The notes: a model not told the origin generated them from the sequence alone. Positions 22,363-46,801 are shown, numbered from the stretch's first letter. The stretch: 64,000 nt of DNA from an uncultured Acidobacteriota bacterium (GCA_963843575.1 CAWJKZ010000015.1:192001-256000), one strand, 5' to 3'. Program-made: numbers and translations.

Positions 22363-23304
22363 ATGGTCGAGCGGCGGCGGGTTCTCGGACGGACAGGGTT
22401 ATCGGTTCTCGATGTCGGCTTTGGCGCCTGGGCCATTGGAGGGGATAGGTCCGGCTGGGGCTATGGCCCTACCGACGATCGAACATCTTTGAGGGCTGCC
22501 GAAGCAGCACTCGATCAGGGATGCAATTTTTTTGATACTGCCGACTGGTACGGGCACGGACACAGCGAGGTTTTGCTGGGGAAGGCGCTCAATTCCAGAC
22601 GCTCCGACGCGGTCATTGCCACCAAGGGGGGACTTGACTTCTACCACGGATCAGTGGGCGCAAATTTCCACCCCGCATACCTTCGCTTTGCACTCCACCA
22701 GAGCCTTCGACGCCTGCAGACCGACCATGTTGATGTTTATCAGCTTCATAATCCGCCGCCTGAGATAATCCACAGTTCGACGGTCGTCGACGAACTGAAA
22801 CGTTTGCAGAGCCAAGGCAAAATCCGCTGGCTCGGGATCTCGGCTGCTACAGTCCAAGACGGACTATCTGCCATCGACGCCCTTTGGCCGGACACCATTC
22901 AGATTGCGTATAACATGTTGGCTCCCCAGGCCGCAGCGACGCTTTTCCCCTTGGCCGATGCTCGCGGGGTTGGAGTGATCGCCAGGGAGCCACTGGCCAA
23001 CGGCTTTCTATCGGGGAAATACGGAGTGAACGCGTCTTTCCCGCCGAGCGACATCCGCAGCCATTGGCCTCCCGAGGTCCTCTGGGATGTCGTGAATCGG
23101 GTGCAGATGCTTGCGCCCTATTGCCGGCCGGGAGAAACGATGGCTCAACTGGCCATCCGTTTTGCGCTCGAACCACGTGCTGTGTCCGTGGTGGTCTGTG
23201 GCTGCAAGACTCCTGAGCATGTTGCAGAAAACTTTCGTCAAACCTCAGTCCATACTCAAGCCACTATGAAATCTACGCTGATGAACCGGGAGGTACCGTT
23301 ATGA
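22363..23304 (+). CDS. aldo/keto reductase (first gene of the putative RiPP operon)
   Basis: GFGAWAIGG, FFDTADWYG.GHSE, IATKGG, SLRRLQTDHVDVYQLHNP motifs; ATGA overlap with the next gene. Confidence 0.92.
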   Translation: MVERRRVLGRTGLSVLDVGFGAWAIGGDRSGWGYGPTDDRTSLRAAEAALDQGCNFFDTADWYGHGHSEVLLGKALNSRRSDAVIATKGGLDFYHGSVGANFHPAYLRFALHQSLRRLQTDHVDVYQLHNPPPEIIHSSTVVDELKRLQSQGKIRWLGISAATVQDGLSAIDALWPDTIQIAYNMLAPQAAATLFPLADARGVGVIAREPLANGFLSGKYGVNASFPPSDIRSHWPPEVLWDVVNRVQMLAPYCRPGETMAQLAIRFALEPRAVSVVVCGCKTPEHVAENFRQTSVHTQATMKSTLMNREVPL

Positions 23305-23738
23305 ACGAAACTACGGCCCAACAATCGGCTGGAACATGGGGAAGCCCTGGGGCGTCGCCACAAATGGCGAGCCCGTGCAACATTGCCTCCCTCGCGCCGT
23401 TTCCCCCAATGCTGCAGGAGGCGGTCATGCAAACGGTCCTGGAGGCCAAGTGCGAAAGGGCCACTGATATCTGGTACGACGACGAGGCCAACAAGTCCCT
23501 CGTTGTCATGCGTCTCGGCGTCCAATGGCAGTTGAACGAGACGGCGAGGGCGCTCTGGCTCCGTCTCGGGAAGCGCGTGGGAGAAATCGTCGATGAATTA
23601 AGTAAGGAATACCCCGGCACGGATTCTCAGCAGATCAAATATCTCACCGTTGAGTTCGTTCTGAACGCGACCTCGCACGGGATTGTTGATCTTGTCTCGG
23701 AGCCGCCTGGAGAAAAGGCCAAGAAGAAGCAGTCTTAG
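23301..23738 (+). CDS. PqqD-family stand-alone RiPP recognition element (RRE)
   Basis: LNETARALW...VGEIVDELSKEY..D..I...VEFV..A..HGIV matches the PqqD winged-helix pattern; ~40-aa low-complexity N-terminal extension. Confidence 0.8.
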   Translation: MNETTAQQSAGTWGSPGASPQMASPCNIASLAPFPPMLQEAVMQTVLEAKCERATDIWYDDEANKSLVVMRLGVQWQLNETARALWLRLGKRVGEIVDELSKEYPGTDSQQIKYLTVEFVLNATSHGIVDLVSEPPGEKAKKKQS

Positions 23739-23842: not shown

Positions 23843-25330
23843 ATGCAACGACACACGATCGACCAGTCCACGTGTTTTGTCCCGTGGCCAACGAACGGGC
23901 GAACAGCCGGGAATGGCGCGATCAGAATCCGGTTGTTTCAACGCGTGGTTGCTCCGTGGACTCAGCCCACCGCCGTCTGGGAGTTCGGACCGCTCACCGG
24001 CTCCGTGGAGGGATTGGATATCTCCTTATGGCGATTCGACCTCCGTTCGATGCGTCTGCGCAGCAGTCAAGGCACGTGCCTGGCTCATACGTTTAGCGAG
24101 GCGAAAAATCTCGATTTTTCGGAACGTATGGTGCTTGAAGTATCGTCATCGACGGTCGGGGGGGCGGGATGGTCTCAATTCGAGGTGGATCTGTTTGTGC
24201 CGCCGGACGAGCTTGATGGGATGAAACGCCGGCTCCGGCTCAGCCGGGTCCCCCCGATCGAATGGTTTTTTGTTGAGCTGACCAACCGATGCAATTTCCG
24301 GTGTGCCTGGTGTCCCAGCGTAAAGATGGCGCGGGGACGCGGCGCCATGCCGCTGGCTCGAGCCAAGGTCTTAATGGAGGAGATCGCCGCCTATCGACGG
24401 CGCCATCCTCTGTTCTCCCTATACGCACAGATCCAGAATCCGGTGTTCCTGCACGTCATGGGCGAGCCTCTCCTGCACCCCGATTTTTTTGAAATCGTCC
24501 GACACGGCCAGGATCTCGGACTGAACTTCTGCCTGGTCACCAATGCGAGCCTCATCAAAGGGGAGATGGTTCGCCGGCTGCTGGAAAGCAACTTGAATTC
24601 GATCGTCCTGAGCCTCAACGCTCCGGACGAGGCCTCCTTCTCTCAAGCGCGTGCCCCCCTTTCGTACGGCCGTCTGGTTGCACAGGTTCAGGAGCTTGTG
24701 CGGGAGCGGTATCGGCGCGGCAGCACGCTTCCGCGCCTGGAGCTTCAACTCATCAATTCCAAACGGGTCCGCTGGTCGGCCTTCCCCCTGGTGGACGAAC
24801 CTGAGCAGGTGGCGCGGCAACTCGTGTTCTGGTCGGATTTCGTGCAGTCGCTGGAGAAAGCGAGCGGTGTCATCTCCTGTGGGCTCGAACCCGCCGAGGC
24901 AGCGCGCTGGCAGACCGTCCTGGAGCGCGAGACCAACGATCGGGGCATCTACTTCGAACTGGGACTGAACCTGTCGCTGACTTTCAAGCTGGCCTGCAAC
25001 TTCGGCAACGAGCTGTTGCCGGACCACCTGAAGGTGCTTGAGACCTCCAGCGGGGTCTGCCACTTCAGGAACGCCTATCGGACGTTTTGCGTGTTCTGGG
25101 ACGGCTCTTGTACTTTTTGTTCGCTTGATTACGACAACGAAGTCAATCTGGGCAATGTCTTTGAACAAGGCATCGATGCGATCTGGACAGGTGAGAGTCT
25201 CACCCGAATCCGCGGTCTGGCCGAACACGGCGTTCTGGCCGAACCGCTGTGTCGCCGTTGCATGGGCACCCTGGTGCCGAGCCGAGTCGCTCGAGAGCCA
25301 TCCGTCCCGAAGGGAGACATCCATGGCTGA
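23843..25330 (+). CDS. radical SAM enzyme with C-terminal twitch/SPASM-like domain and unknown N-terminal domain
   Basis: ELTNRCNFRCAWC, GEPLLHP, TN; C-terminal C..VFWDGSCTFC..D...LGNV...IW...CRRC. Confidence 0.88.
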   Translation: MQRHTIDQSTCFVPWPTNGRTAGNGAIRIRLFQRVVAPWTQPTAVWEFGPLTGSVEGLDISLWRFDLRSMRLRSSQGTCLAHTFSEAKNLDFSERMVLEVSSSTVGGAGWSQFEVDLFVPPDELDGMKRRLRLSRVPPIEWFFVELTNRCNFRCAWCPSVKMARGRGAMPLARAKVLMEEIAAYRRRHPLFSLYAQIQNPVFLHVMGEPLLHPDFFEIVRHGQDLGLNFCLVTNASLIKGEMVRRLLESNLNSIVLSLNAPDEASFSQARAPLSYGRLVAQVQELVRERYRRGSTLPRLELQLINSKRVRWSAFPLVDEPEQVARQLVFWSDFVQSLEKASGVISCGLEPAEAARWQTVLERETNDRGIYFELGLNLSLTFKLACNFGNELLPDHLKVLETSSGVCHFRNAYRTFCVFWDGSCTFCSLDYDNEVNLGNVFEQGIDAIWTGESLTRIRGLAEHGVLAEPLCRRCMGTLVPSRVAREPSVPKGDIHG

Positions 25331-26606
25331 AGTGCTGCTGATCAATCCACCGATGTGGTCCCCAAAAGCCCACAGCTCTTTCACGGGGCTGTGCCCGCCC
25401 TTGGGTCTCGGGTATCTCGCCGCCTGCCTCCAACGGGAGGGCATCGGCGTCGATATTCTGGATTTGGACGTCAGTCCGGATCCTGATGCGGAACTGCGAC
25501 AGGCGTTTGCCCATCGGGCGCCTCGCTTGGTGGGCATTACCAGCCTTACGCAGAACCACTTCCTCGCCTTGCATGTGGCGCGGGCCGTAAAGGCCATGAA
25601 CAGCAAGACCCTGGTCGCCATCGGCGGTCCCCACGTTTCCTACCGTTGGGACGAGGCATTGGCACAACCCGCCATCGACGTCGTCGTGCTCTTTGAGGGT
25701 GAACGCACAATTGTCGAACTCTACCGGCAGGCGCAGCAGGAACAACCGGATTGGAGCGGCATTGCCGGCATCGCCTACCGGAATGGGGGGCATAATGAGC
25801 TGACTTCTCCCAGACCCCGCGAGCAAGAACTGGACCGCATCCCGCATCCGGCGCGCCATCTGCTGCCGATGGGCCGTTACGGAAGGCCCGGCACGATCAT
25901 GACCAGCCGCGGCTGTCCGATGAAGTGCATTTTCTGCATCTCCAGTACCTACGAGGGATGCTACCGCCCGCGCAGCGCGGATGACGTCGTCGAAGAACTC
26001 ACAGTGCTCCGGCACACCTGGGGCCTGCGGGAAGTCTACCTGTTGGACAATGTCTTCACAGTCGACAGTGCCCGGGTACAGAGCATCTGTGCGCAGATTA
26101 TCGAACGGAAACTCGGCATCCGGTTTCACTGTGTGTCACGGGCGGATTACATGACCGAGGAGCTCGCTCGCTGCCTCAAGGCCGCCGGATGCGAACGCAT
26201 CGAGATCGGTGTGGAATCGGGGTCGCAGGAAATCATCGAGGCTTTGAAAAAGCACATTACCCTGGAGCAGGTGTTTCGAGCCGCAGACCTCGTCCTGGGC
26301 GCGGGCATGCAGCCCATGTTCACCTTTCAGATCGGTTCTCCCTTCGAGACCGCCGCCTCACTGGAAAAGACCCATCAGCTCGCGGCTGACTTGCGCTCCA
26401 AAGGGGCCATCACCTTCTTCTCAGTCATGACCCCTTATCCGGGAACGCCCTTCGCTGAACGTGCGGAGGAACTCGGGGTCGTGATCCGAGCGAAGGACTG
26501 GCGGGAGTTCCGGACATCCAACCCTATATGCGACATGCGCTATCTGAATTGCAACAGTTTGCGTCAGGCTTTATACAGGGAATTTCCCCTGCTGCAAGAC
26601 CGCTAG
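25323..26606 (+). CDS. cobalamin-binding radical SAM enzyme (class B methyltransferase-like)
   Basis: PPLGLGYLAA, GGPH, EGE (B12 domain); TSRGCPMKCIFC; GVESG; TPYPGT; ATG 25323 after GGGAG. Confidence 0.92.
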   Translation: MAEVLLINPPMWSPKAHSSFTGLCPPLGLGYLAACLQREGIGVDILDLDVSPDPDAELRQAFAHRAPRLVGITSLTQNHFLALHVARAVKAMNSKTLVAIGGPHVSYRWDEALAQPAIDVVVLFEGERTIVELYRQAQQEQPDWSGIAGIAYRNGGHNELTSPRPREQELDRIPHPARHLLPMGRYGRPGTIMTSRGCPMKCIFCISSTYEGCYRPRSADDVVEELTVLRHTWGLREVYLLDNVFTVDSARVQSICAQIIERKLGIRFHCVSRADYMTEELARCLKAAGCERIEIGVESGSQEIIEALKKHITLEQVFRAADLVLGAGMQPMFTFQIGSPFETAASLEKTHQLAADLRSKGAITFFSVMTPYPGTPFAERAEELGVVIRAKDWREFRTSNPICDMRYLNCNSLRQALYREFPLLQDR

Positions 26607-27704
26607 ATGCGGTCAATACCGCGAGGCACACCCACCGTGACCGGGCCAAGACAGGGCGAAGCCCCGGGATCTCCAGACCACCTTTACCTCGAGATCACGG
26701 ATCGCTGTAATCTCGGGTGCAAGCACTGCTATCTGGGGGCGCACCCCGGCGGCAGGCACATGATGCAGGGCCGGGCTGTGCGCGCAGCGCTGTCGGACTT
26801 TGCCGCCATGGGCGGTCGCACCGTTTCGTTCAGCGGTGGTGAACCGCTGTTGCATCCCGAGTGGAAATCGTTGCTGGCACACGCGGCTCGGCTCGGCCTC
26901 GGGTGCACGTTGATCACGAACGGCACCATGCTCGACAAGGAGGCGATTGACGCCTCGGTGCGTCTGGGCGCGAGGATTGCGCTAAGTATCGACGGGAGTC
27001 AGGCCGCGACCCACGACGCGATTCGGGGCCGCGGGAACTTCGCGCGGGTCCAGACGGCTCTGAAGAATCTCGGGGCGATTGGAGCACAAGGGCAGGTGAT
27101 TGTCTGCTTCACACCCATGAGACGGAATCTGAACGATTTAATTCCTTTGGCCAAAGCGCTCCACCGGGACGGATTTCATCAGCTCTACGTGTCCCTCCTG
27201 GAAGATCGTGGCCGGAAACGAGCCCACGATCGGGAGCTGTCGCTGGACACTGGGGAGCGGGTTCGTTTGTTGACCCAGTTGGTCCTCTTGCTCACCGACC
27301 CGAGCCTGGCAATGCACGTGGATACAGGCCATCTGACGTATTTTTTTGAGCGCCTCCTGGGAAAACCGGATGGGCTCGGCGACCCGATTGAGGGAACCTT
27401 GCGTGTGGCCCCTACGGGCCAAGTCTACCTGAGCGCGTATGTGGATGATGAGGCATTCCGTTTGGGAAGTCTGCAGGAAGCAAACCTGCGGGAGTGCTTC
27501 CTGTCGGAGCGCGTCCGTGTCCTTTATGCGCAAGCCAGAGAACGGCAGGACGGTCTGCCGGCATGTCGCGATTGCCCGCACTGGATCGTGTGTGGTGGTG
27601 GCAGCCCCGCTCGCGCGTATGCGAACAACGGCTGTTTGTCCACCCCGGACGAATTCTGCGAGGCTAAACGTATCTTTCTGGAGCGATGGTACCGTGCAGT
27701 GTGA
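26607..27704 (+). CDS. radical SAM/SPASM-type peptide maturase (degenerate SPASM)
   Basis: EITDRCNLGCKHC, SGGEPLL, TNG, SIDG..HDAIRG.G; C-terminal CRDC.....CGGGS...C......FC. Confidence 0.88.
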   Translation: MRSIPRGTPTVTGPRQGEAPGSPDHLYLEITDRCNLGCKHCYLGAHPGGRHMMQGRAVRAALSDFAAMGGRTVSFSGGEPLLHPEWKSLLAHAARLGLGCTLITNGTMLDKEAIDASVRLGARIALSIDGSQAATHDAIRGRGNFARVQTALKNLGAIGAQGQVIVCFTPMRRNLNDLIPLAKALHRDGFHQLYVSLLEDRGRKRAHDRELSLDTGERVRLLTQLVLLLTDPSLAMHVDTGHLTYFFERLLGKPDGLGDPIEGTLRVAPTGQVYLSAYVDDEAFRLGSLQEANLRECFLSERVRVLYAQARERQDGLPACRDCPHWIVCGGGSPARAYANNGCLSTPDEFCEAKRIFLERWYRAV

Positions 27705-27869
27705 AAGCTGCAGGTACCGCGCCCGGTAAGTTGCTTTAAAAAGTTCAGGGATGCCCATGCGTGCTGTGCACCCCGTGTCTGAGGCAGCCTCCCGGAGGGA
27801 GCATTTATTTCCAATACAAGTCGGAGGCGGCCGGTATCTCCAAACCATAACCGAGGAGAGGAGTTTGTC

Positions 27870-28859
27870 ATGACCGACGAACAACGGATATTCGTACCAC
27901 CGAGTGCCACGGGTTTGACCGCAATGAATCCGGCAGGCGGTGTCCGCATGGGCTACGCCATGGGCGGGGCTCAGAGGATGGCACCCATGATGGGTGGCGT
28001 CCGCATGGGCTACCCCATGGGCGGAACTCAAATGATGTCCCCTATGATGGGTGGTGTGCGCATGGGCTACCCGGCCGTCATGGGATACGTAATGGACGTG
28101 TCGGGCGGTGCGGGCATGATGCCGCGCATGGGAGGAGTCCGCATGGGCTACCCGATGGGCGGTACTCAGATGATGTCCCCCATGATGGGAGGAGTCCGCA
28201 TGGGCTATCCCATGGGCGGTGCTCAGATGATGTCCCCCATGATGGGTGGTGTGCGTATGGGCTACCCATCCGTCATGGGATATGGCGCCGGTGCCGACGT
28301 GACAGGCGGCGCGCGCATGGGAGGAGTCCGCATGGGCTATCCCATGGGCGGTACTCAGATGATGTCCCCCACAATGGGGGGAGTCCGCATGGGCTATCCC
28401 ATGGGCGGTTCTCAAATGATGGCGCCCTCGATGGGTGGCGTGCGCATGGGATACCCTGCCGTCATGGGATATGGCGCCGGCGCGGACGTGACGGGCGGCG
28501 CGCGCATGGGAGGAGTCCGCATGGGCTACCCCACCATGGGCGGTACTCAGATGATGTCCCCCACCATGGGAGGAGTCCGCATGGGCTACCCCATGGGCGG
28601 TTCTCAAATGATGGCGCCCTCGATGGGTGGCGTGCGCATGGGATACCCTGCCGTCATGGGATATGGCGCCGACGTGAACGTGGCGGGCGGCGCGGGCATG
28701 GGAGGAGGCGGTTCTCAGATGATGTCACCCATGATGGGAGGAGTCCGCATGGGCTACCCCATGGGCGGTTCTCAGATGATGTCACCCATGATGGGAGGAG
28801 TCCGCATGGGCTACCCCATGGGCACGCAGCAAATGGGTAGTTTCCGAATGGGAATGTAG
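27870..28859 (+). CDS. Met/Gly-rich tandem-repeat protein; putative multicore RiPP precursor (14 x GGVRMGY)
   Basis: Strong GAGGAGAGGAG RBS; 22-aa unique N-terminus then 14 invariant GGVRMGY motifs; synonymous codon variation between repeats; located directly after the RRE and three radical SAM genes. Confidence 0.85.
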   Translation: MTDEQRIFVPPSATGLTAMNPAGGVRMGYAMGGAQRMAPMMGGVRMGYPMGGTQMMSPMMGGVRMGYPAVMGYVMDVSGGAGMMPRMGGVRMGYPMGGTQMMSPMMGGVRMGYPMGGAQMMSPMMGGVRMGYPSVMGYGAGADVTGGARMGGVRMGYPMGGTQMMSPTMGGVRMGYPMGGSQMMAPSMGGVRMGYPAVMGYGAGADVTGGARMGGVRMGYPTMGGTQMMSPTMGGVRMGYPMGGSQMMAPSMGGVRMGYPAVMGYGADVNVAGGAGMGGGGSQMMSPMMGGVRMGYPMGGSQMMSPMMGGVRMGYPMGTQQMGSFRMGM

Positions 28860-28865
28860 CAACCA

Positions 28866-28893
28866 CTCACCCTCTCCTTCGGGAGAGGGTGAG
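28866..28893 (+). terminator. perfect 12-bp hairpin with cUUCGg loop after the repeat gene (terminator or mRNA stabiliser)
   Basis: CTCACCCTCTCC-TTCG-GGAGAGGGTGAG; only a weak U-tract follows. Confidence 0.6.
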
Positions 28894-29029: not shown

Positions 29030-29815
29030 ATGACGACCCTGTGCCTCCATTCAAAGCCTGAAATGGAGGCCTTTCTCCGCCACAATACCTACTTGCATCT
29101 TTATGAGATCGGTGACCTGGACGACTTCTTCTGGCCGCGGACCCTATGGTATGGCCTGAAGGACAGAGGCCAGATTACCCAACTCGTCTTACTTTACACT
29201 GGAGCATCTCCTCCCGCCTTGCTTGGTTTCACCGAGGGGCCCATAGAGGAAATGGCAGAGTTGCTGCGATCTATCATCCCTCTTCTCCCCAAACGTTTTC
29301 TTGCTCATCTCAGTCTGAATCTGGCGGCGGTATTTGCAGACGACTACCAAATCCAATCGCACGGCACGTTCCATAAGATGGCGCTGACCCGCCCCTCATG
29401 CCTGGAAGGAGTGGACACGTCTGCAGTCGACTCTATGACGCTGTCCGACATCGATGATCTACAAAGGCTCTACCGCGCAAGCTATCCGGGGAATTGGTTC
29501 GATCCGCGGATGGTCGGGACTGGCTACTTCTATGGCATACACCGCGATACCGAGCTTGTGAGCGTCGCCGGGGTGCATGTATACTCCGCACATTACAGAA
29601 TCGCCGCGTTAGGCAGCGTAACAACACACCCGAACTATTGCAAACAGGGCTTGGCAACTGCAGTTTGTGCCAAACTCACCAAGTCGTTGATGGGGAGTGT
29701 GGAACATATCGGGCTGAACGTGGAAGCCGGCAACGCGAGCGCCATACGTTTGTATGAGAAACTCGGATTTGAAGGTGTCGCTGCGTATGGAGAGTATGCC
29801 TTCGAGTGGAAGTGA
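29030..29815 (+). CDS. GNAT family N-acetyltransferase (FR47-like C-terminal domain)
   Basis: VSVAGVH, LGSVTTHPNYCKQGLA, LNV..GNASAIRLYEKLGF motifs. Confidence 0.9.
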   Translation: MTTLCLHSKPEMEAFLRHNTYLHLYEIGDLDDFFWPRTLWYGLKDRGQITQLVLLYTGASPPALLGFTEGPIEEMAELLRSIIPLLPKRFLAHLSLNLAAVFADDYQIQSHGTFHKMALTRPSCLEGVDTSAVDSMTLSDIDDLQRLYRASYPGNWFDPRMVGTGYFYGIHRDTELVSVAGVHVYSAHYRIAALGSVTTHPNYCKQGLATAVCAKLTKSLMGSVEHIGLNVEAGNASAIRLYEKLGFEGVAAYGEYAFEWK

Positions 29816-30420: not shown

Positions 30421-31254
30421 TCACTCCTGACGCCTCGAGGCAATAGCGTAGAGGGTTGCCTTCAGCTCAAAGGGGGTCAGATAGGGGTGCTTGGAGAGAA
30501 CCAGCGACACAATGCCTGAGATGTGCGGTGCGGCGAAGCTGGTGCCGGTAACCGTCTTATAACCGCCGCCCGCCCAGGGCGCACGAATATTGGTGCCGGG
30601 AGCGGCTAACTCGATTCGATTCCCGTAACGATAGGCGAAGGTGAACGAGTCGCCCCCCTGCAAGTTTCCGACCGAGATCAGAGACGAGAAGATGGATGGG
30701 AAACTCGGAGGGGGGACGTTGTTGGCCGCCGCCACGAGAATTGAGCGGCCGAAATAGGCAAGATCCGTCAGCTCATGCAACTGGGAGAAGTACTCCTCCC
30801 TCGTTGTGCCCAAGCTGAGGTTGACCACGTCCATTCTGTTCTCAATGGCCCAACGAAGGCCCAGGAGAAAAGCCTCACCGGTTCCGCCGCAGGACGGGCC
30901 GAGGACTTTGACGCTGAACAGTTCCACGTCAGGCGCGATGCCCTTGATGATGCCGGCACACGCCGTGCCGTGCCCAAAAGCATCGGTAAAACTGCAGGGA
31001 AGCAGTTGGGGCCCCGACGGAGTCATCCACACATCTACGCCCCCCTTCACGCTGCCCGTGATGTCCGGATGGGAGGCGTCGATGCCGCTGTCGACAACCG
31101 CCACTCTGATACCTCTTCCCGTGGAGTCTCCCCAGGCATTCTCAGGAGCCGCGAGTCGGGAAATGGGCCCATCGAGCCTCGAGTACACACTGCCCGAGTT
31201 CGCCGGCTGATGTCCCTGAAACCTCTGATTGCCTGTTGTGCCTCTGAGGGGCAT
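30421..31254 (-). CDS. S8 subtilisin-like serine peptidase, no signal peptide
   Basis: Catalytic triad motifs VAVVDSG, GHGTACAG and GTSFAAPH; NLSLG. Confidence 0.93.
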   Translation of the reverse strand: MPLRGTTGNQRFQGHQPANSGSVYSRLDGPISRLAAPENAWGDSTGRGIRVAVVDSGIDASHPDITGSVKGGVDVWMTPSGPQLLPCSFTDAFGHGTACAGIIKGIAPDVELFSVKVLGPSCGGTGEAFLLGLRWAIENRMDVVNLSLGTTREEYFSQLHELTDLAYFGRSILVAAANNVPPPSFPSIFSSLISVGNLQGGDSFTFAYRYGNRIELAAPGTNIRAPWAGGGYKTVTGTSFAAPHISGIVSLVLSKHPYLTPFELKATLYAIASRRQE

Positions 31255-31266
31255 GGGTTGGGCTTT

Positions 31267-32604
31267 CTACCTTCTCAATGAGCCGCCGAGACTCAGGGGG
31301 CGGAACTCCAATCGCGCGTGAACCGCATTCAGGATGTCGAGGCACAGCTGCGCATCTTGCGGCCTTCGTGTGACAATGCTGACGATCCTGGTCGCAATCT
31401 CTAACGCCATCCTGTACTCGTGTGAGGCGCTAGCCCTTTCGAGACCTGAAGCCATCGCCGCCACCACCTCCCGTGAGCCGGGGACGATATCCGTTGCCCC
31501 CAACCTCTCCTTGGCCGCTGCCAGCAACGACTGCCCTAGCAAGAACATATGGCGCTTCTCCACAGCCGCTCCCACGATCGTGGCGAACTGTGTGAGAAGC
31601 TCCATATCCTGCTCGGAAAAACCCCCTCCACCGACTTTGTTCACAGTCTCCAGGACGCCTAACACGCTGGATCCGGAAACTATCGGCACAGCAAGGATGG
31701 AGTGGGTTGCAAACTGAATGGCCTCGGAAATGGACCGGTTCCACTGTGCGTTTTCCGCCAGATCTTGCACGTTCAGTGGCTGGCCGCTGGCCACCACAAA
31801 GCCAGCGATGCCCTGGCCAATCGCCACTTTGAAGTGTTTTAATTCATCCGCCTTCTCTCCATGAACGGCAGAGAAGACAAGTTGGGTCCCGGTTTCGTCG
31901 AGGAGGAGGATCGATCCGCCCTCCGCCTCGACGGAGACCGTGGCCACGCTGATAATGGTATCCAGAAGTTCCTCTGATTCCGGGGATGGCTTGAGCATTC
32001 CCATGACATCCAGGACTTTGAAACAATCCAGGCCTGTTCCCGCCTTGTCCGCCAGGGAGTCAGATGCCTTTCTCAGATTCTCCAGTTCATTCAGGGTGGA
32101 GCGTAAGACCTCTTCGAGGGCTTGGATGCGATCATGCAGCTCTTGCGAGTCACCGTAGGCCATTTGCGTATTCCTCCATGCCGGTTCCGTCTGACTGCCG
32201 ACGGGTCGAAGCACAGCCTGTTCGAATCGATAATCGACCGCCGGCGACACAGTGACTATGAACGATCGCAGATCATCCACAACGGACAGGCAGTGACCGC
32301 AGGCTGACAGATGATCCACCACGGTTCGCAGGGTTTCACCAGACAGCGTTCCGTCAACGTAGTCCGATATGATCCCAATCCCCGGATGGTTCGCCGGCGC
32401 GTCGGGAGAGCCCGCTTCTGTTGCTGCGTCAAAAACTTCCGATCGAATCGCAAGCCACAGCGCATCCGCGCCGATGGCTCTTTCCACCTGGGCCCGGCAG
32501 ACTTCGCACACGGCGATATGGTCTGAAAGCGGCAGCAATTCCGCCACAGAGGGGCTTTGCCGGCAGTACTTCTCAATTTGAGTTTCTGCAAGATGCTCGG
32601 ACAA
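31267..32604 (-). CDS. fusion of two zf-HC2-like anti-sigma motifs, a coiled coil and a GAF domain
   Basis: HIAVCEVC and HLSACGHC; GAF motifs GQGIAGFV..SGQP, SILAVP, GVLETVNK..F...D..LL; internal GGAGG plus ATG at 32163. Confidence 0.8.
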   Translation of the reverse strand: MSEHLAETQIEKYCRQSPSVAELLPLSDHIAVCEVCRAQVERAIGADALWLAIRSEVFDAATEAGSPDAPANHPGIGIISDYVDGTLSGETLRTVVDHLSACGHCLSVVDDLRSFIVTVSPAVDYRFEQAVLRPVGSQTEPAWRNTQMAYGDSQELHDRIQALEEVLRSTLNELENLRKASDSLADKAGTGLDCFKVLDVMGMLKPSPESEELLDTIISVATVSVEAEGGSILLLDETGTQLVFSAVHGEKADELKHFKVAIGQGIAGFVVASGQPLNVQDLAENAQWNRSISEAIQFATHSILAVPIVSGSSVLGVLETVNKVGGGGFSEQDMELLTQFATIVGAAVEKRHMFLLGQSLLAAAKERLGATDIVPGSREVVAAMASGLERASASHEYRMALEIATRIVSIVTRRPQDAQLCLDILNAVHARLEFRPLSLGGSLRR

Positions 32605-32729
32605 GCGGCTCTTGACTCACGAATCGCAACCCAGGATGTTCGGCAGGAACCTGATGATAGCAAGCGGCTATCACCAAGTCCTTACGTTTCCTTAAGTTGC
32701 TGAACCTCCGTAGTTATTACCACGTCACC

Positions 32730-33803
32730 TCACAGAAAGCCCTTCAATCGCCGCGTCAGCCGTTCGCGCGCCGATTTGCGGGCATTGATCACGTGTTGCC
32801 GCCTCACATTCAGCAGCTCAGCGATGCGCGAATCCGGAAGCGGCAATTCATTCCACAGCTCGGCGAGCCGTTCGGCACTGATGTCCAGCGTTTCCGCCAG
32901 TTGTCGGATACTAGCCACCCCGGTAGCCGGAAAAAGAGCAATGCAACCGCCCCCGTCCGCATCTTTGAGGTTAAGTAGCAAAGCCGTACGCTGGTTGAGC
33001 GGAAGCCGCCTTACTTCCTCCCACAACCGCTGCAGAAAGACTCGCTTCTCGAGCTGCCACGAGGGATCCGGCTGCGGATAAGCCGCAAAAGTCATGGCAT
33101 CTTCGCCTTGGTCGATAGGTTCCGTCCGCCGCTCGCGTACCGGCAATAATGCCGCAACCAAGCTGACCAGTTTGTCGAATTCAAGCGGGCAGCCGAGGCG
33201 ATTGAAAATTGCAGCCACAGCGGGGCCGATTCTTGTCTGGGTTCCGCCGCTCGCGCAGATTTCGGTAAGCAGCTTCTCGTCCCCAGACACCTGCCTGAAG
33301 CACTCTTCGCTTGCGGCTTGATTCTGCCCTTGCCAGGCTGCGAATCCGGCAATCAGCTTTCTGCGTGCGCTCTGCCACAGCGCGAACCCTTTCTGGCGCG
33401 TCAACAGGTAGTGGAGCCGGTTGGCCAGTGCGTGCCGTTCAGGAAACCGGCGCCGCATCCAGCGGGAGCATGCGCGATATGTGATGACCGCGGCCAGTCC
33501 CCGAAAATCGCCGATCGGGTGGGCATCGGGTCGGTAACCGAATTTCTGCAACTCGGCCAGCAATTGCAGTACGGCTTCCTGGCACAAATCATCGGCATCT
33601 GCCTGTCCCGACGCATCATGATAGGAAAGGTGGAGTTTGTATCGGATGATACCTTTTATTACCGGCTCGGCATGCGCGGCAATCAACCGCGAGAGAACAC
33701 TACGGGCTTCATCATGGCTGATCGGCGGCAGAAGTGATTCCAGTAAAGGATCGATGCGCGCCGACAGGCCCGGCAAAGAACTTGCGTTTTTGATGCTGCT
33801 CAA
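32730..33803 (-). CDS. sigma-70/ECF-like RNA polymerase sigma factor with a large central insertion
   Basis: Region-2-like DADDLCQEAVLQLL; region-4-like LWEEVRRLPLNQRTALLL...IAELL.....VINARKSARERL; lies upstream of the zf-HC2 gene. Confidence 0.7.
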   Translation of the reverse strand: MSSIKNASSLPGLSARIDPLLESLLPPISHDEARSVLSRLIAAHAEPVIKGIIRYKLHLSYHDASGQADADDLCQEAVLQLLAELQKFGYRPDAHPIGDFRGLAAVITYRACSRWMRRRFPERHALANRLHYLLTRQKGFALWQSARRKLIAGFAAWQGQNQAASEECFRQVSGDEKLLTEICASGGTQTRIGPAVAAIFNRLGCPLEFDKLVSLVAALLPVRERRTEPIDQGEDAMTFAAYPQPDPSWQLEKRVFLQRLWEEVRRLPLNQRTALLLNLKDADGGGCIALFPATGVASIRQLAETLDISAERLAELWNELPLPDSRIAELLNVRRQHVINARKSARERLTRRLKGFL

Positions 33804-34124: not shown

Positions 34125-34661
34125 CTATGCTCCCCACGGGCGCCGCAGCATCTCCTCAAAACGCGTTCCGGCGATGGAGATGTTGCTCAGCAGGTGCGGC
34201 GCCAGCTCATCGGGGTCCTCCGTTAGAGATTGCTCCCGCTGCACCGGCTCAACGCCGAGGCTTCCGAGGGTGGTCCGCAGGCGGTCCGCCAGAAACACCG
34301 CAAGCGACTGATAGAAGCGTGCGGCAAAACCCACATCATCCTGCAGTTTCTCCAGCAGCACGCCCCTAGGAATCGCCCCGACCCACGATTGCAGTTCGGC
34401 GCGCACGCTGGCGGTCGGCGGGCGGGAATCGACGAAGGAGACTTCTCCGATGACGTCGCCGGCTTTCAAAACAGCCAGTCTCGGTGCGGTCGTTGTATAG
34501 ACAACGAACGCGCCGTCCAAAACGAAGTAAAGCCAATCTGTCGGTTTTCCCTGCTGGATCAGCACCGTTCCTGCCGGCACTGCAATCCTGCTGCCGTTGC
34601 GGATCATCCAATCAATGTCGGGATCGTTCAGGATGCCGAGAAAATAGAGTGCCTTTCTCAT
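34125..34661 (-). CDS. cyclic nucleotide-binding protein of the bacteriocin (NHLM) transport-accessory type
   Basis: LGILNDPDIDWM, LIQQG...LYFVLDG, GEVSFVD.RPPTASV, FAARFY motifs; directly after the NHLM ABC pair. Confidence 0.85.
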   Translation of the reverse strand: MRKALYFLGILNDPDIDWMIRNGSRIAVPAGTVLIQQGKPTDWLYFVLDGAFVVYTTTAPRLAVLKAGDVIGEVSFVDSRPPTASVRAELQSWVGAIPRGVLLEKLQDDVGFAARFYQSLAVFLADRLRTTLGSLGVEPVQREQSLTEDPDELAPHLLSNISIAGTRFEEMLRRPWGA

Positions 34662-34706: not shown

Positions 34707-37601
34707 CTACGCGATTTGGCGATGGGCCAGATCGAAGAAGGCTCCCGGCTTGTTGAGCAGCTCGCGATAGGTCCCTTCCTGAACGACCGCACCCCTCTCG
34801 ATCACATAGATGTAGTCGGCGCTGGCGACCGTGCTCAGCCGGTGCGCAATGACGATCCGCGTGGCCTGCAGTCTGGCGAGACTGCGGATGACAATCGCCT
34901 GAGTCTCGATATCCAGCGCGCTCGTCGCCTCGTCAAACAGGATAATGCGCGGTTTCCTGACGATCGCGCGCGCGATCATGAGCCGCTGCCGCTGTCCTCC
35001 CGAAAGCCCGCCGCCACCTTCGGCGATCACCGTATGCATCCCCATCGGCATGGCCTTGAGGTCCCTCTCGAGCCCCGCCGCCACTGCCGCCTGCCACGCA
35101 TCCTCTGTGGTGAGCGCGGACGATCCCACGATGTTCTGGTAGATGGATCCGGTCAGTAAACGGCCCGTCTGCAGCACTACCCCGATCTGCCGCCGCACGG
35201 CCTGTACGTCGAGATGCGCGAGGTCCTGGTTGTCAAAATAGATGGAACCGGATTCAGGAGTCTCAAAACCCAGCAACATCCGCAGCAAGGTCGATTTGCC
35301 GCTCCCCGAGGGCCCGACGATGGCGATAAACTGCTCCGGCGCGACATTGATTGAAACGTCCCGGAGCACCGGCGCGGCATCGGCCCGGTATCGGAAATTC
35401 ACATGTTTCACCTCGACCCTTCCCGACAGCTCGCCCGGATAGCTCTTGGTCCGATCCACTTCGGGCAGTGCTTCAAGAATGGGGCGACATCGTTCGTAAA
35501 GCGGGATCACGGCCAAAGCCGAAATAAGCGCAGAACACAGACTGAGCGCCGAACCTTGGAACTGCATGAAGGCGGCATTGAAGGCGAGAAAACCGCCGGT
35601 CGAGAATCCGCTGCCCGCGGGGGAATCCAGGAGGCGGCCTGCGGCATAAAAAATAACGACGGAGCTCAAGACGGGGAATGCCGAAATGAATACGACAAGC
35701 ATGGCACTCGTCTTGCGAGCTCGAAGCGCAGCCGTTTTCTCCTGCGCAAATTCCTTGGCCCAGGCCGCAAATGCCCGAGCCTCGGCACCCGACACGCGTA
35801 ATTTAGCGATTCCCTGGATGATCTGTAGCAACACGCCGGAAAGGTGCCCGCTGATTCTCGTCGCTTCCCGCTGGTGTTGGAGATTCTGAAAGCCGATCAC
35901 AAACGCACCGAGAAAGATGACAAGAGCCAAACCGGTCGCGAGCAGGGCCAGGCTCGGGCTGTAGTAGAAGAGCACGGCGAACGTAAAGACGGAGAAAACT
36001 CCCGAAAAGAGCGTCGACAACAGCGACCCGGTCAGGACCTGTCGAATCGAACTCACGGTCAGACCGCGCATCGCCAGGTCGCCGGCGGCGTAGTTGCGGA
36101 AGAATGGCACATGCAGGCTCAGCAGGCGGTCCCAGACCGCGGATTGGGTCGAGGAATCCATCTTGGCTTCCAGCCTCAGCATGGCGAAGTTCTGGACCAC
36201 CTGGAAAAGCGCGATGGATGCGGACACGACCAGTAGCACCAGAACAATCTCGAGCAGCAGGCTTCGGTCGGCACCCGGAATCACGGAATCGAAAACAATC
36301 CCGGTCATCACCGGCGCAACCAGGGCGAGAAGACCCGTCGCCATGGCCGTTATGAGCAGAGTGGTCAATTCGCCCCGGCAACCGTGGAAACTGAACCGGA
36401 TCAGATCGAGTGCGTTCAGCTTTTTGAGCGGAAACGGGCGATAAAAGCTGTAACCTAAGGGCTGGAGCGAGGCCGCAAACTTCTGGCTGACGCGGGTTCG
36501 TGTTCCGCTCGGGGCATCGAACGCGTCGTATTTTCCCGGCGTCACGGGCAGGAGTGCTATCGGGGTGTGATCTCGCTCGCTTACCGCCAGCAACGGACCG
36601 TTGTCCCGTTTCCACCATTTTCCCTTCAGGGCGACGATGCGCATCCGGACACCGGAGGCGCGGGCAATCGCCCCCACCGGATCCATCTGCACACCCCGCC
36701 GCCGGTCCGGGGCCGGCTTGAAGTCGATTCCGAGCGGTTTGCCCAATGCAGCGCAGGCGAGGAACCAGGGATCCGTCTCCTCGGCAGCATGGGGCGCTTC
36801 TTCCGGGCCCTCGAGGGGGGAGGCCAGCACCCGTATCGCCAGATCCAGGCGTGTCTGTTCGGTCTGCTTCCGCCGCTGCAGACGCGCACGCTCTCTGTCC
36901 TCGGACGCCTTCAGGCTCTCGATCAGGCAGTGCAGTGCCGTCGCATGGAACCGTTGCAGTCCCGTCCAGAGCGGATCGAGTGCAAGGAACTCGACGGTGC
37001 CGATTATCATCAGCTTGGAGCCTTTGGATACGTCCAACCACGCGTTGACGGAAACCGGGAAGAAACCTTCGCTTTCAGCGAGGCTCCAATCGCCCAGGAA
37101 ACTCGAGGTGCCCTCCAGTCGCCTGACCCAGACGACGCCCTGGCTCGGCAGCACAGACTGAGGGTGATTGAACACCGGGGTAGTGTCCGGTTGCAGAAAC
37201 TCGAAACTCTTTGCCTTTCTGTTCTGCGCGATGGCACGGGAGAGGGCGCTAATCCAATCCTCGAGCAGTTGTGCGGCACGCGGGATGTCGGACAGATCCT
37301 GCGTGCGCGATAGCTCGAGCACCTGGCCCCCCGGGCTGGGCATGGCAAGCAGTTTCTGCGACACCGAATCCGGATGCTGCATGCCAAACAGTGCCTGGCC
37401 TTTACCAAGGCGAAGCACGTGCGTGCGCGCTCCGACCGCCTCGCCATCGCGGCTCTCTACCAGGAACAAGTCGAGCGTACCCGTCTGGACGAAGAGAACT
37501 CGGTCGACATCATCGATAAAGAAAGGAGTTCTCGGACCCGCGTCGGCGAGAAATCCCGCGGATGACTGATCCTGATGAGGCCCACTGGTCTGCATATCCA
37601 T
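34707..37601 (-). CDS. NHLM/NHLP bacteriocin ABC transporter permease/ATPase (no peptidase)
   Basis: N-terminal extension, IARASGVRMR.V.L.GKWW..DNGPLL, TM domain, [25 protein letters not shown]. Confidence 0.92.
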   Translation of the reverse strand: MDMQTSGPHQDQSSAGFLADAGPRTPFFIDDVDRVLFVQTGTLDLFLVESRDGEAVGARTHVLRLGKGQALFGMQHPDSVSQKLLAMPSPGGQVLELSRTQDLSDIPRAAQLLEDWISALSRAIAQNRKAKSFEFLQPDTTPVFNHPQSVLPSQGVVWVRRLEGTSSFLGDWSLAESEGFFPVSVNAWLDVSKGSKLMIIGTVEFLALDPLWTGLQRFHATALHCLIESLKASEDRERARLQRRKQTEQTRLDLAIRVLASPLEGPEEAPHAAEETDPWFLACAALGKPLGIDFKPAPDRRRGVQMDPVGAIARASGVRMRIVALKGKWWKRDNGPLLAVSERDHTPIALLPVTPGKYDAFDAPSGTRTRVSQKFAASLQPLGYSFYRPFPLKKLNALDLIRFSFHGCRGELTTLLITAMATGLLALVAPVMTGIVFDSVIPGADRSLLLEIVLVLLVVSASIALFQVVQNFAMLRLEAKMDSSTQSAVWDRLLSLHVPFFRNYAAGDLAMRGLTVSSIRQVLTGSLLSTLFSGVFSVFTFAVLFYYSPSLALLATGLALVIFLGAFVIGFQNLQHQREATRISGHLSGVLLQIIQGIAKLRVSGAEARAFAAWAKEFAQEKTAALRARKTSAMLVVFISAFPVLSSVVIFYAAGRLLDSPAGSGFSTGGFLAFNAAFMQFQGSALSLCSALISALAVIPLYERCRPILEALPEVDRTKSYPGELSGRVEVKHVNFRYRADAAPVLRDVSINVAPEQFIAIVGPSGSGKSTLLRMLLGFETPESGSIYFDNQDLAHLDVQAVRRQIGVVLQTGRLLTGSIYQNIVGSSALTTEDAWQAAVAAGLERDLKAMPMGMHTVIAEGGGGLSGGQRQRLMIARAIVRKPRIILFDEATSALDIETQAIVIRSLARLQATRIVIAHRLSTVASADYIYVIERGAVVQEGTYRELLNKPGAFFDLAHRQIA

Positions 37602-37643: not shown

Positions 37644-39800
37644 TCAGTTAGCTCCCATGAGTCTGGCGTAAGTGCCGCGTTTCCTGATCAAATCCCGATG
37701 GGTGCCGCGCTCGACGATTTTTCCGGCGTCGAGGACGAGGATTTCATCACAGTCACGGATCGTACTGAGCCGGTGGGCGACAATCAGGCAAGTGCAACCG
37801 CGCCGCCGGATCGCGTCGTCGACGCGCTTTTCGGTAATCGGATCCAGCGCGCTCGTCGCCTCATCGAGCACCAGAAGCCGCGGATTGCCCGCGAGAGCCC
37901 GGGCGATCTCGAGCCGCTGCCGTTGTCCTCCGCTGAAATTCCTGCCCTGCTCTTCTATCCGGTAATCGTAACCGCCCGGCCGGTCGGCAATATCGTCATG
38001 GATGCAGGCGTCCTGGGCGGCCTGAATGACCGTCGGTTCCTCCAGTGTGTCGTCCCAGAGCGTCAGATTGCTTCGGATCGCCCCCTCGAACAACGCCGGG
38101 TCCTGATCTACCACTCCGATCGAGTTATTCATCACCTCGCGGGGAAGTTCGTCGCGCTTCTTGCCATCAAAAAGAATCTCGCCACTCCACGGCTCATAAA
38201 GCCCGGAGACAAGCTTGGCCACCGTTGATTTTCCGCTCCCGGACGCTCCGACGACGGCTACCCTTTGCCCGGGCTTGAGCTTCAGGTTGAAATCCGAAAT
38301 CAAGGGTGGCTCGAGCCGGCTGTAGCCGAACGCGACCTGCCGCATGTCCAGAGAGCCCTCGAGCTTCTGTGCCGGATCTCCGCTGACTTGAGTGTTGAGC
38401 AGCCTCTGTTCCGGATAGCGGAGCACGTCGTCGAGGCGGTTCATATCCCCGTGTGCTTCCTGGAGTTTCCCTCCCAATTGAACCAACCCGTTGACGGGTT
38501 CGGTGAAGCTGGCTGCCAGCGTCTGAAAAGCGATCAACATCCCGATCGTCAGCACACCATCAATCACCCGGATCCCCCCCAACCCGATTATGGTCACAGC
38601 GTAGAACGACATCAACAGCGGAGAACCCGCGGAGAGAAACTGTGCCGACACGGCGAGCTCCTGCTCGGCTCCGACGAGCTTAGCCTGGTGACCTGCCCAG
38701 TTGGCGAAAAACTCCGATTCGGTTCCCGTGGCCTTCAGGCTCTCAATCCCTGTCAACCCATCCATCGAGGCCGCCATCAGTTTGCCTCGCCCCTGCAGCA
38801 GCTTCCGGTTGGAGTCCCGCCGTTTTTTCGCGATGAACTGCAGGAACAGGAGGTTGGCCACGGCGATGGCGATGGCCACCAGCGTAAGCACAGTGTCGTA
38901 CTGGAACATAAGTGCAGCAAAGAAACCGATCATCACGAGATTGACCAGGTTGGTCGCCAGACCGCCGGACAGCAAGGCCGCCACGGTATCGTTCAGCTCG
39001 ACTCGTGATGCGATCTCGCCGCTGTAGCGCTGGGCAAAGAATTCGATCGGCAACCGCAATACGTGCCACAGGAATCGACTCGAGGGCCCGAGCGCGAGCT
39101 TCATTTCCAGGCGTAGCAGCCCCTGCTGTTGCAGGTAGGTGAGTCCCGCCCGGAGCACTGCGGCAACACTCATGGCCAGCAGCAACGGCTGCAGCCACGC
39201 GCGCGCCCCACCCACCATGATGTTGTCGACAAAGATCTTGAAAAAGACCGGGATCACGATTCCCGGCACGACCAATGCCAGTGTGGCCAAAACGACGTAG
39301 GCTAGGGCGAGCCGGCTGCCTGGAAGGCGCGCGGCGAGGGCCTTGAGAATGCTGGGGCGCGCCCCTCCCTTCCTGAACGCGGGGGTTAGCTGGAAGGCCA
39401 TGACAAAGCCGGTAAACGACTCGTCGAATTCCGCATCGGAAACCGCACGCGGCCCTTCGGCGGGATCGTTAAGGTACACTTTGCCGCGCTTGAAACCCTC
39501 CACCACCAGAAAGTGGTTGAAGTTCCAGAAAACGATCATGGGCAAAGGCATGTCGCGGAGTTGCGCCGGCTCCTTCGTGTATCCGTTGCCCGCTAGTCCA
39601 TAGGACTGGGCAGCCTGAAGCATGTTGAGGGCTTTGCTCCCGTCCCTGGAAACGCCGCAGGCCACGCGCAGTTCTTCGAGAGGCACGTGCCGGCCGTAGT
39701 AGCCGAGGACCATTCCCAGAGATGCCGCACCACACTCCGTTGCTTCCATCTGAATAGTGGTAGGGGTCCTGACACGCCGGCGCCGGAAAATCTTGTACAT
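37644..39800 (-). CDS. NHLM/NHLP bacteriocin ABC transporter with C39 peptidase domain
   Basis: [17 protein letters not shown] (catalytic Cys), WNFNHFLVV (His), NDP; GASGSGKST; FSGGQRQR. Confidence 0.95.
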
Positions 39801-39952
39801 ATTCAATGCTCTCTAAGGGAAGCGGACACGGGACAGCCACGGAATTCGCTCTTGCGAATGAGCCAAAGCTGGAAGTGTCCGAGCGAATACGATGGCTGTC
39901 CCCAAATCGCACCCACGGACAAACACTGACGTACACGGATCAACCGCGCCGA

Positions 39953-41209: not shown

Positions 41210-41420
41210 AGTTCCCTTACAAAGGACAAAGACTGCCACGGATTACACGGCCCGGCCAAGGGCCGCAACCAGTAAATTGGACGCGGATTCCCGTGGAAGA
41301 ACGCGGATTGTACTCGGGCGCGTCCATCCGCTTAAATCCGTGAAATCGTTTAAGATCCGCGTTCCGCTTTTGTTTTTTCATCCGTAGCTGCTTTGATCTT
41401 ACAGACATGGCTTCAGTACC

Positions 41421-45955: not shown

Positions 45956-46183
45956 ATGACCAAAACATTAACCAGGCATGGGAACAGTCTGGCACTGGTA
46001 ATCGACAAACCGATACTGGAGCAGATGGGTATTGATGAGACCACGCCCCTCACGCTGGCATTTGATGGTCGCTGCGTGATCGTTACGCGTGCATCCAGCA
46101 CCGCCCGTCGCAAGATGGTCCGTTCCGCCATTGATGAGATCCATCACGAGTTTGGGAATGCGCTGAAAAAGCTCGCTGAATGA
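45956..46183 (+). CDS. AbrB/MazE-fold antitoxin
   Basis: TKTLTRHGNSLALVIDKPILE; GGAGG RBS; ATGA overlap with the Doc gene. Confidence 0.88.
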   Translation: MTKTLTRHGNSLALVIDKPILEQMGIDETTPLTLAFDGRCVIVTRASSTARRKMVRSAIDEIHHEFGNALKKLAE

Positions 46184-46632
46184 GGCCTCAGATGGAAATC
46201 GCGTTTCTCACCCTGGAGGACGTTCTGGCGCTGCAAGGAGAGCTGATCCGGCGATATGGAGGGACTCCCGGATTGCGCGATGCCGGTCTGCTGGAAGCAG
46301 CACTGGCTATGCCACAGGCCGGATTTGGAGGCCAATATTTTCACGAATTTCCTCATGAGATGGGAGCGGCCTATCTTTTCCACCTTGTTCGCAATCACGC
46401 CTTTATTGACGGAAACAAGCGAGTCGCCCTGGCGTGCGCGATTCTATTTTTCAAAATCAACCTCGTACCCTACTCATTAACGGAAGAAGAGGCGGTCGAA
46501 CTAACTCTTGGTGCAGCAAGTGGCCGAATAGATAAGGGCGCCGTGACGTTGTTTTTCCAGCAGCACTCGAAAATGCAACATAATCCGAACACATCTATAA
46601 CAAAGAGAAAAGATAGAGGAAGTCCAAAATAG
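46180..46632 (+). CDS. doc: death-on-curing (Doc/Fic) toxin
   Basis: YGG.PGLRD.GLLE.AL..P; NHAFIDGNKR Fic motif. Confidence 0.9.
   Translation: MRPQMEIAFLTLEDVLALQGELIRRYGGTPGLRDAGLLEAALAMPQAGFGGQYFHEFPHEMGAAYLFHLVRNHAFIDGNKRVALACAILFFKINLVPYSLTEEEAVELTLGAASGRIDKGAVTLFFQQHSKMQHNPNTSITKRKDRGSPK

Positions 46633-46724: not shown

Positions 46725-46801
<77 letters not shown>

Follow-up and report, generated by a model that had tools for sequence, protein, structure and literature searches.

What might a cell make from a protein in which one seven-residue motif recurs 14 times, and whose gene shares an operon with three radical S-adenosylmethionine (SAM) enzymes? This question is raised by a stretch of 64,000 nucleotides from an uncultured Acidobacteriota bacterium (GCA_963843575.1, CAWJKZ010000015.1:192001-256000; the window, to which all positions refer), in which a gene at 27870..28859 on the plus strand encodes the 329-residue repeat protein P0001. 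On gene context and sequence comparison, we consider it somewhat probable that P0001 is a repeat-motif substrate, of the type of peptides that are made on ribosomes and altered post-translationally (RiPPs), for a cassette of an aldo-keto reductase (AKR), a PqqD-type RiPP recognition element (RRE) and three radical SAM enzymes. P0001 and this cassette are a candidate new family of modified peptides.

A seven-residue motif repeated at two levels

Translation and a script count reproduced in every detail the layout described in an earlier, sequence-only reading of the window, which had listed a 22-residue N terminus, 14 GGVRMGY motifs, 18 MGY in total, the spacers and the composition. The 14 exact GGVRMGY cores start at residues 23, 42, 61, 88, 107, 126, 151, 170, 189, 214, 234, 253, 290 and 309. 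Eight of the 13 spacers between cores have 12 residues and one has 13, and the remaining four are long (18-30 residues) and open with P[A/S]VMGY. Because these long spacers follow cores 3, 6, 9 and 12, the units form four triplets and one doublet. Tandem Repeats Finder described the same region as a period of 57 nested in a period of 189 (4.0 copies, 87% matches, score 1048).

P0001 contains 87 Gly and 75 Met residues (23% Met), includes Met spacings of the M-x-x-M type, and is entirely free of Cys, Trp, His and Lys. Tyr is the sole aromatic residue of the core, and the three Tyr-Gly pairs of the protein, a pair that belongs to the X-Tyr-Gly sites of spliceotides (PlpX), all lie inside long spacers. 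Read by eye, the N terminus (MTDEQRIFVPPSATG...) has no hydrophobic core, and the C terminus reads ...SFRMGM and so lacks a terminal Val-Tyr. We found no match to P0001 in Pfam or NCBIfam.

The repeat gene is real and its motif is under purifying selection

Comparison of the 14 cores at the nucleotide level revealed six variable columns out of 21, all six at codon position 3. These differences require at least nine substitution events, every one of them synonymous (P = 4.4e-6 given 25% synonymous sites). The sequence-only reading had claimed selection at the protein level from synonymous codon variation, a claim that this result supports, and the comparison of substitutions among repeats that it had suggested gave a clear outcome: the eight regular 19-residue units have undergone at least 13 synonymous and at least seven non-synonymous events, and the non-synonymous ones all fall outside the core. 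The core has thus stayed invariant through synonymous divergence, which indicates long-term selection on the peptide. The constant motif is read in plus frame 1 only, where MGGVRMGYP occurs in 13 of the 14 copies, and between 4 and 9 versions of the peptide arise in each of the remaining five frames. We conclude that the P0001 gene is real and that its motif is under purifying selection.

Other features of the gene were read from the sequence around it. A Shine-Dalgarno sequence, GAGGAGAGGAG (27853..27863, +), ends 6 nt 5' of the P0001 ATG, and the GC content at third codon positions (0.74) is in line with that of adjacent genes. Seven nucleotides past the stop codon lies a 12-bp GC-rich hairpin with a UUCG loop and no U tract (28866..28893, +; dG -25.7 kcal/mol, z -4.56), and none of 200 shuffled sequences folded as well. 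A promoter and terminator scan gave counts equal to those in shuffled sequence, and Rfam gave no match over 21.5-30.6 kb. Between the last radical SAM gene and the repeat gene there is also a small hairpin, CTCCC GGA GGGAG, with a T-rich tail (27789-27801), of a terminator-like kind whose count equals that in shuffled sequence. Among the sequencing runs listed none was of RNA, and two soil-metagenome DNA runs yielded just a few stretches (151-214 nt), which show no letter differences and lie outside the repeat gene.

The exact P0001 protein was absent from a collection of 15 billion proteins, in which four neighbours encoded on the same 315,910-nt contig (the AKR, two of the radical SAM enzymes, rSAM495 and B12-rSAM, and a GNAT acetyltransferase) are present as singletons. 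Public or automated gene calling seems to have missed the P0001 open reading frame (ORF).

P0001 is encoded in an operon with an RRE and three radical SAM enzymes

The P0001 gene is the last but one of a same-strand operon, placed 165 nt after the third radical SAM gene and preceded by a Shine-Dalgarno sequence of its own. The operon opens with the gene for the 313-residue AKR (22363..23304, +; PF00248, E 7.4e-55), which is found as an exact protein in the public collection. Overlapping it by 4 nt is the gene for the 145-residue PqqD-type RRE protein (23301..23738, +), whose residues 68-128 match PF05402 with 34.8 bits against a cut-off of 23.4. Three radical SAM genes follow. rSAM495 (23843..25330, +; PF04055, PF13186) is a radical SAM/SPASM protein of 495 residues with a 140-residue N-terminal extension and the motif CNFRCAWC at residue 150. 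The B12-binding enzyme B12-rSAM (25323..26606, +; PF02310, PF04055) has 427 residues, its gene overlaps that of rSAM495 by 8 nt, and an identical 427-residue protein in the collection supports the start at 25323. rSAM365 (26607..27704, +; PF04055), the gene of which abuts that of B12-rSAM, has 365 residues and a SPASM-like C terminus. A 261-residue GNAT acetyltransferase gene (29030..29815, +; PF00583, E 1.2e-10) follows that of P0001.

We compared the three enzymes with models of named families. rSAM495 reached no NCBIfam cut-off. For rSAM365 the best models were StsB and MftC, with about 101 bits each and below their cut-offs (MftC, TIGR03962: 101.2 bits, cut-off 265). The PqqE model TIGR02109 scored 31.8 bits against a cut-off of 381 with rSAM495 and was not among the 25 models listed for rSAM365. 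B12-rSAM was most similar to BchE and ApyD; ApyD, its best named RiPP family, scored 148.9 bits against a cut-off of 750, and TIGR03975 scored 102.2 bits against a cut-off of 281.85. The GYW motif is absent from all three enzymes.

At residues 320-351 of rSAM365 we observed the pattern CxxCx5CGGGS, in which Ser replaces the fourth Cys of the canonical SPASM motif CX2CX5CX3C, as it also does in the four closest relatives. Across these five proteins just four C-terminal Cys residues never vary (C320, C323, C329 and C351), a pattern suggestive of one auxiliary cluster.

A packed operon that includes an RRE and three radical SAM enzymes supports the reading of P0001 as a substrate, as does the invariance of the core while non-synonymous events fall outside it. 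As in generic RRE-dependent RiPP clusters, an RRE is encoded with the putative maturases, and the candidate precursor gene lies adjacent to them.

A collinear cassette occurs in Rhizobium acidisoli

A translated search of plasmids revealed a collinear cassette on Rhizobium acidisoli plasmid pRapFH23a (NZ_CP034999.1, 131.5-137.7 kb), with identities to the window proteins of 29% (AKR), 26% (RRE), 33% (rSAM/SPASM), 42% (B12-rSAM) and 33% (rSAM). The five enzyme domains stand in the same order at both loci. The Rhizobium protein called 'aldo/keto reductase' (618/642 residues; L259, 4096-6024; NZ_CP034999.1 about 131.4-133.4 kb) consists of an AKR, 12 tandem 14-residue repeats and a PqqD-like RRE. 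Its repeat, 12 x PNMAMSPRGAFAVT, contains Met, is in frame and follows ...PRMGFSAS.... In other R. acidisoli assemblies, partial proteins break inside the repeat and are in frame on both sides. The genes on pRapFH23a are annotated merely as aldo/keto reductase and radical SAM proteins.

The plasmid locus differs from the window in that it has no separate repeat gene and neither an S8 protease nor an NHLP-type exporter beside the cassette, which is followed by an IscA-like gene and a pyroglutamyl peptidase. We saw no other Met-rich or repeat ORF at the pRapFH23a locus, and no cassette on other plasmids of the collection. This comparison shows the five-enzyme cassette to be conserved as a unit in two genomic backgrounds that are unrelated, it shows that the AKR and RRE, fused in Rhizobium, belong together, and it shows that a tandem Met-containing peptide repeat goes with the cassette at both loci. 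In the window's own RRE protein, the first 40 residues (23301-23420) are rich in Pro, Ser and Ala; they include SPQMASP, similar to NMAMSP in the Rhizobium repeat, and may be what is left of a former linker or repeat.

Relatives of the single enzymes were sought more widely. rSAM365, whose family in metagenomes is small, had 86 representatives at E <=1e-30, the closest three with 56%, 46% and 40% identity; the closest of all represents a cluster of 70 metagenome sequences, whose contigs are <=5 kb long. Among the closest relatives, others are encoded on contigs of 17 kb and 64 kb, and one is MDX9973203.1. Searches of 40 relatives, 400 phylum genomes and 136 other class genomes gave no rSAM365 orthologue; the unpublished genome G034 is counted in these tallies and likewise lacked a close match. 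In a metagenome scan with generic radical SAM patterns, the cassette was present at none of the at least 80 loci listed, all of them <=38% identical. For rSAM495, three matches turned up among 400 genomes (29-34% identity), all without other cassette genes.

One match to rSAM365, in genome G473, was set aside as an RRE-fused radical SAM protein in a different context. This 456-residue radical SAM/SPASM protein (contig C72; L230, 2132-3793) is preceded by a 74-residue ORF ending in ...AQACSPSPCVSDP and neighboured by two large proteins that appear nucleotidyltransferase-like by eye. It looks like a different, Cys-containing RiPP cluster.

The operon was acquired together with a protease and an exporter

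A genome of the same genus (G001, 81% complete) is syntenic with the window up to 21,760 and again from a tRNA-Arg(CCT) gene (46725..46801, -), which forms the right border of a variable block. Between these borders (21790-46725) the window carries 24.9 kb where the other genome has about 3.7 kb without translated similarity. The flanks profiled (16.0-22.0 and 49.0-52.0 kb) have a GC content of 0.645-0.685 and the stretch 22.0-43.0 kb a lower one of 0.57-0.61, and the best C39-ABC protein of G001 is only 30% identical. Absence from G001 and the common borders indicate that the radical SAM operon, the protease and the exporter share an origin, and we conclude that all these genes arrived together as a single block. 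The ORFs scanned in the block included no integrase, no att-like direct repeat of >=12 nt links its left border to the tRNA gene, and its gaps hold no other precursor-like ORF.

The protease and exporter genes form an opposite-strand operon that converges on the radical SAM operon. Nearest to P0001 is a small subtilisin-like S8 protease of 277 residues with no visible signal peptide (30421..31254, -; PF00082, E 1.1e-37), which scored 85 bits against the QhpE model (cut-off 165). It is followed by genes for a zf-HC2/GAF anti-sigma-like protein and a sigma-70/ECF-like protein (31267..33803, -), and for a cyclic-nucleotide-binding, bacteriocin-type transport-associated protein (34125..34661, -; TIGR03896, 127.8 bits, cut-off 161). 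The exporter comprises an NHLP-type export ABC permease/ATPase (34707..37601, -; TIGR03797, 918.9 bits, cut-off 709.4), an NHLP-type C39 peptidase/ABC exporter (37644..39806, -; TIGR03796, 1057.8 bits, cut-off 853.3; PF03412), an NHLP-system HlyD-type secretion protein (39953..41239, -; TIGR03794, 324.6 bits, cut-off 156.2) and a TolC-like outer membrane protein (41421..42983, -; TIGR01844, E 1.1e-16, below cut-off). The block also holds a Fic/DOC gene (46180-46632) and SMP-30/gluconolactonase-like and URO-D-like genes.

With the protease and exporter in the same block, and with the collinear Rhizobium cassette that carries Met-containing repeats, the substrate reading gains further support. 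The sequence-only reading had taken P0001 for a multicore radical SAM precursor: gene context and the Rhizobium cassette favour the substrate role, but the release of 14 cores is something we infer.

Searches for relatives of P0001

Protein searches in near-length, shorter and longer ranges found no P0001 homologue, although HMMER scores P0001 against itself at E 1.6e-183 in a phmmer self-test. The ESM Atlas gave no usable match, none of 50 matches in a metagenome pattern scan with P0001 was confirmed, and the 400 phylum genomes gave four weak matches, all Gly-rich and none Met-rich. Plasmids and viral contigs gave no match. Because gene callers can miss such ORFs, these protein-database blanks are weaker than they look.

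The sequence-only reading had also proposed a pattern search for VRMGY-like repeats near radical SAM genes. In a DNA scan of species genomes for three copies of MGY, none of the at least 120 loci listed contained VRMGY, and none of them had a radical SAM, B12-rSAM or RRE neighbour; most of the listed matches were DNA resembling CRISPR or REP elements, or unrelated proteins rich in Gly, Tyr and Met. Four of the listed loci, from Marinobacterium, Halomonas and Modicisalibacter (L048, L049, L072 and L074), have open frames in which the densest 80 residues are Gly-rich, with 21-30% Met and 3-7 MGY; none is related to P0001 or lies next to a radical SAM gene. Two of them (L048 and L049) have a signal-peptide-like N terminus followed by a helical Q/E/M-rich region and appear CpxP/Spy-like by eye, no family search having been made. 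A literature search on motifs, accessions and the enzyme combination returned nothing on this enzyme family, although supplementary tables, which lie beyond such a search, may list it.

A possible route from P0001 to a product

If P0001 is the substrate of the cassette, the RRE would hold its 22-residue N terminus or the flanks of its repeats, and the two SPASM-type radical SAM enzymes would act at each of the 14 M-GGVRMGY-P units. Their chemistry would most plausibly join Tyr to a carbon of a nearby Arg, Val or Met residue, and B12-rSAM may add a methyl group or another C-C bond. ApyD, a B12-dependent radical SAM enzyme in an RRE-guided RiPP cluster, makes beta-methyl-Tyr after Gly (bioRxiv 10.1101/2023.10.30.564719). 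This precedent, together with Tyr being the sole aromatic residue of the core, makes Tyr-centred cross-linking of VRMGY with C-methylation our best guess. B12-rSAM is nevertheless no ApyD orthologue, as its score indicates; ApyD carries its own RRE, and the MNIO and P450 of its pathway are absent here.

The AKR and GNAT proteins could tailor the product, and the conserved reductase hints at a carbonyl intermediate. The cytoplasmic S8 protease, the C39 domain or both may cut at repeat boundaries, where each unit offers GG sites, and the NHLP-type ABC/HlyD/TolC system would export the product or products. Cutting after GG by a C39 domain has a precedent in one radical SAM RiPP, xenorceptide, and N-acetylation by a GNAT enzyme is known from the microviridin pathway. 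Cutting by S8 or C39, N-acetylation by GNAT and export would each be plausible. More tentatively still, we can imagine a new RiPP-like family in which the conserved AKR/RRE/three-radical-SAM cassette works on Met-rich tandem repeats, free-standing here and in cis in Rhizobium, and makes by undescribed radical SAM chemistry many copies of a small Tyr- or Phe-centred product, possibly a small molecule of the PQQ or mycofactocin kind.

Several observations weigh against P0001 as the substrate. All three radical SAM enzymes score below the cut-offs of the named peptide-maturase families, 329 residues is long for a RiPP precursor, and the N terminus is no canonical double-glycine leader. The searches gave no homologue, and hence no co-occurrence with RRE and radical SAM genes to compare. 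The exporter lies on the opposite strand and is tied to the P0001 operon solely through the shared block. The claim of P0001 on this exporter is supported by the lack of any NHLP (TIGR03793) or Nif11 (TIGR03798) leader, both in P0001 and across the rest of the genome (88% complete), a weak negative given that the TIGR03793 model matched none of 14 control genomes. The Rhizobium side is equivocal too: its 42-nt copies are identical in DNA and so carry no signal of selection, and the repeats might be a recently expanded linker. When window and Rhizobium repeat units were aligned, 799 and 809 of 2000 shuffles reached the observed score; the alignment is thus no better than shuffles, and homology of the repeats is not supported.

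Alternative explanations

The best surviving alternative keeps the same enzymes and substrate and differs in the outcome, which would be one long poly-modified polypeptide left uncut, like the poly-cyclopropylglycine peptide of TvgA. We regard this as rather unlikely. TvgB modifies the repeats of one peptide, and the available text of the reports mentions no release of units (PMC9062424, PMC10878394). No protease site at the repeat boundaries can be named from the sequence of P0001, and its spacers are conserved too, with at least seven non-synonymous events in eight units. Against this stand the cytoplasmic-looking S8 protease, the C39 domain and the GNAT protein in the same block, the GG sites in every unit, the five repeats of TigB, which its authors take as five identical products, and the uniform cutting of WprA by WprP2.

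More doubtful is a role for P0001 as a Met-rich protein that stays unmodified and binds Cu(I)/Ag(I), serves as an oxidant sink or has a structural function, perhaps after secretion by the ABC exporter, with the radical SAM genes as chance neighbours. A Met content of 23% and M-x-x-M spacings would suit such a protein, and Met/Gly/Tyr-rich segments do occur in unrelated proteins, including several that by eye look like periplasmic proteins of the CpxP/Spy kind (such as L048 and L049). By contrast, metal binding by Met needs no seven-residue invariance that extends to Val, Arg and Tyr, the gene is packed in an operon with an RRE, and the listed MGY loci included neither VRMGY nor radical SAM, B12-rSAM or RRE neighbours. 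Periplasmic copper and silver binders of the Met-rich kind have a signal peptide and a known metal-binding domain, neither of which P0001 shows, the signal peptide being judged by eye. The Cu/Ag-binding alternative raised in the sequence-only reading thus fares poorly: P0001 has no Pfam or NCBIfam match, no signal peptide, no His and no Cys.

Equally little credence goes to the view that the repeats, as a disordered linker or a coding minisatellite in rapid expansion, play no part as substrate, and that a gene elsewhere encodes what the cassette really acts on. The 12 near-identical 42-nt copies in Rhizobium, which lie linker-like between two domains, fit this explanation, as does the P/S/A-rich N terminus of the window RRE protein with its SPQMASP. 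The window repeats, however, constitute a gene by themselves, preceded by a Shine-Dalgarno sequence, their codons have diverged synonymously while the peptide is invariant, and no other candidate substrate was found at the window or the Rhizobium locus. That the ORF is a chance open frame in GC-rich repeated DNA, as its absence from the protein collection that holds four contig neighbours and a 489-residue shadow ORF on the other strand might suggest, is scarcely credible in view of the restriction of variable core sites to third codon positions, the 4-9 variants in the other five frames, the Shine-Dalgarno sequence and a third-position GC content like that of the neighbours.

Comparison with known systems

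The pathways of mycofactocin (MftA, MftB and MftC) and PQQ (PqqA, PqqD and PqqE) combine a separate PqqD-type RRE with a radical SAM/SPASM enzyme that acts on a Tyr-containing motif. rSAM365 resembles MftC (101 bits), but far below the cut-off, and P0001 has 14 internal motifs. With the NHLP/Nif11 systems the window shares an exporter trio (TIGR03796, TIGR03797 and TIGR03794) above equivalog cut-offs, but not the leader domain.

The principle of repeat-motif radical SAM substrates is already known. TvgA carries TVGG repeats and TigB carries TIGSVS repeats, up to five in 60 residues, and each repeat is modified by the radical SAM/SPASM enzyme TvgB or TigE, respectively (PMC9062424, PMC10878394). 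Like P0001, these substrates have a short tandem motif with a conserved Val or Ile (Val in all 14 P0001 cores), and their clusters include transporter and peptidase genes. They differ in scale, with repeats of 4-6 residues compared with 14 units of 19 residues in 329 residues, and in enzymes: three radical SAM proteins, a separate RRE and an AKR are encoded here, and GYW, the motif by which cyclopropyl synthases are defined (PMC10878394), is missing from both SPASM enzymes. In WprA, WprB forms the same aromatic-to-Arg cross-link at each of three WPR motifs, and the S9 serine protease WprP2 then cuts the peptide uniformly (PMC11851443, PMC12957482). That system has three motifs, one radical SAM enzyme and an S9 protease, whereas the window has Tyr as the sole aromatic residue of the motif and S8 and C39 proteases nearby. 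A protein of the S9 prolyl-oligopeptidase family with PD40 repeats, the protease family that processes WprA, is encoded at 7404-9647 (-), 18 kb upstream and outside the block.

The statement in the sequence-only reading that no 14-core radical SAM substrate like this was known accordingly needs narrowing. TvgA, TigB and WprA have been published, but the scale, the Met/Gly composition and the enzyme set are unusual. What is new is the 14 units in a two-level hierarchy, the Met/Gly-rich sequence with a core free of Cys, Trp, Lys and His, the enzyme set and the fused Rhizobium form.

If our reading is correct, P0001 would be the largest repeat-motif substrate yet linked to radical SAM peptide maturases. 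With Cys, Trp, Lys and His all lacking from its VRMGY core, the residues that cross-links commonly use would be unavailable, and chemistry of a new kind, on Tyr, Arg, Val or Met, would be likely. P0001 is missing from a protein collection in which its neighbours are present, and mining of protein databases can thus overlook low-complexity precursors of this kind. Rhizobium acidisoli FH23, which is cultured and tractable, carries the same cassette and makes the question testable at the bench.

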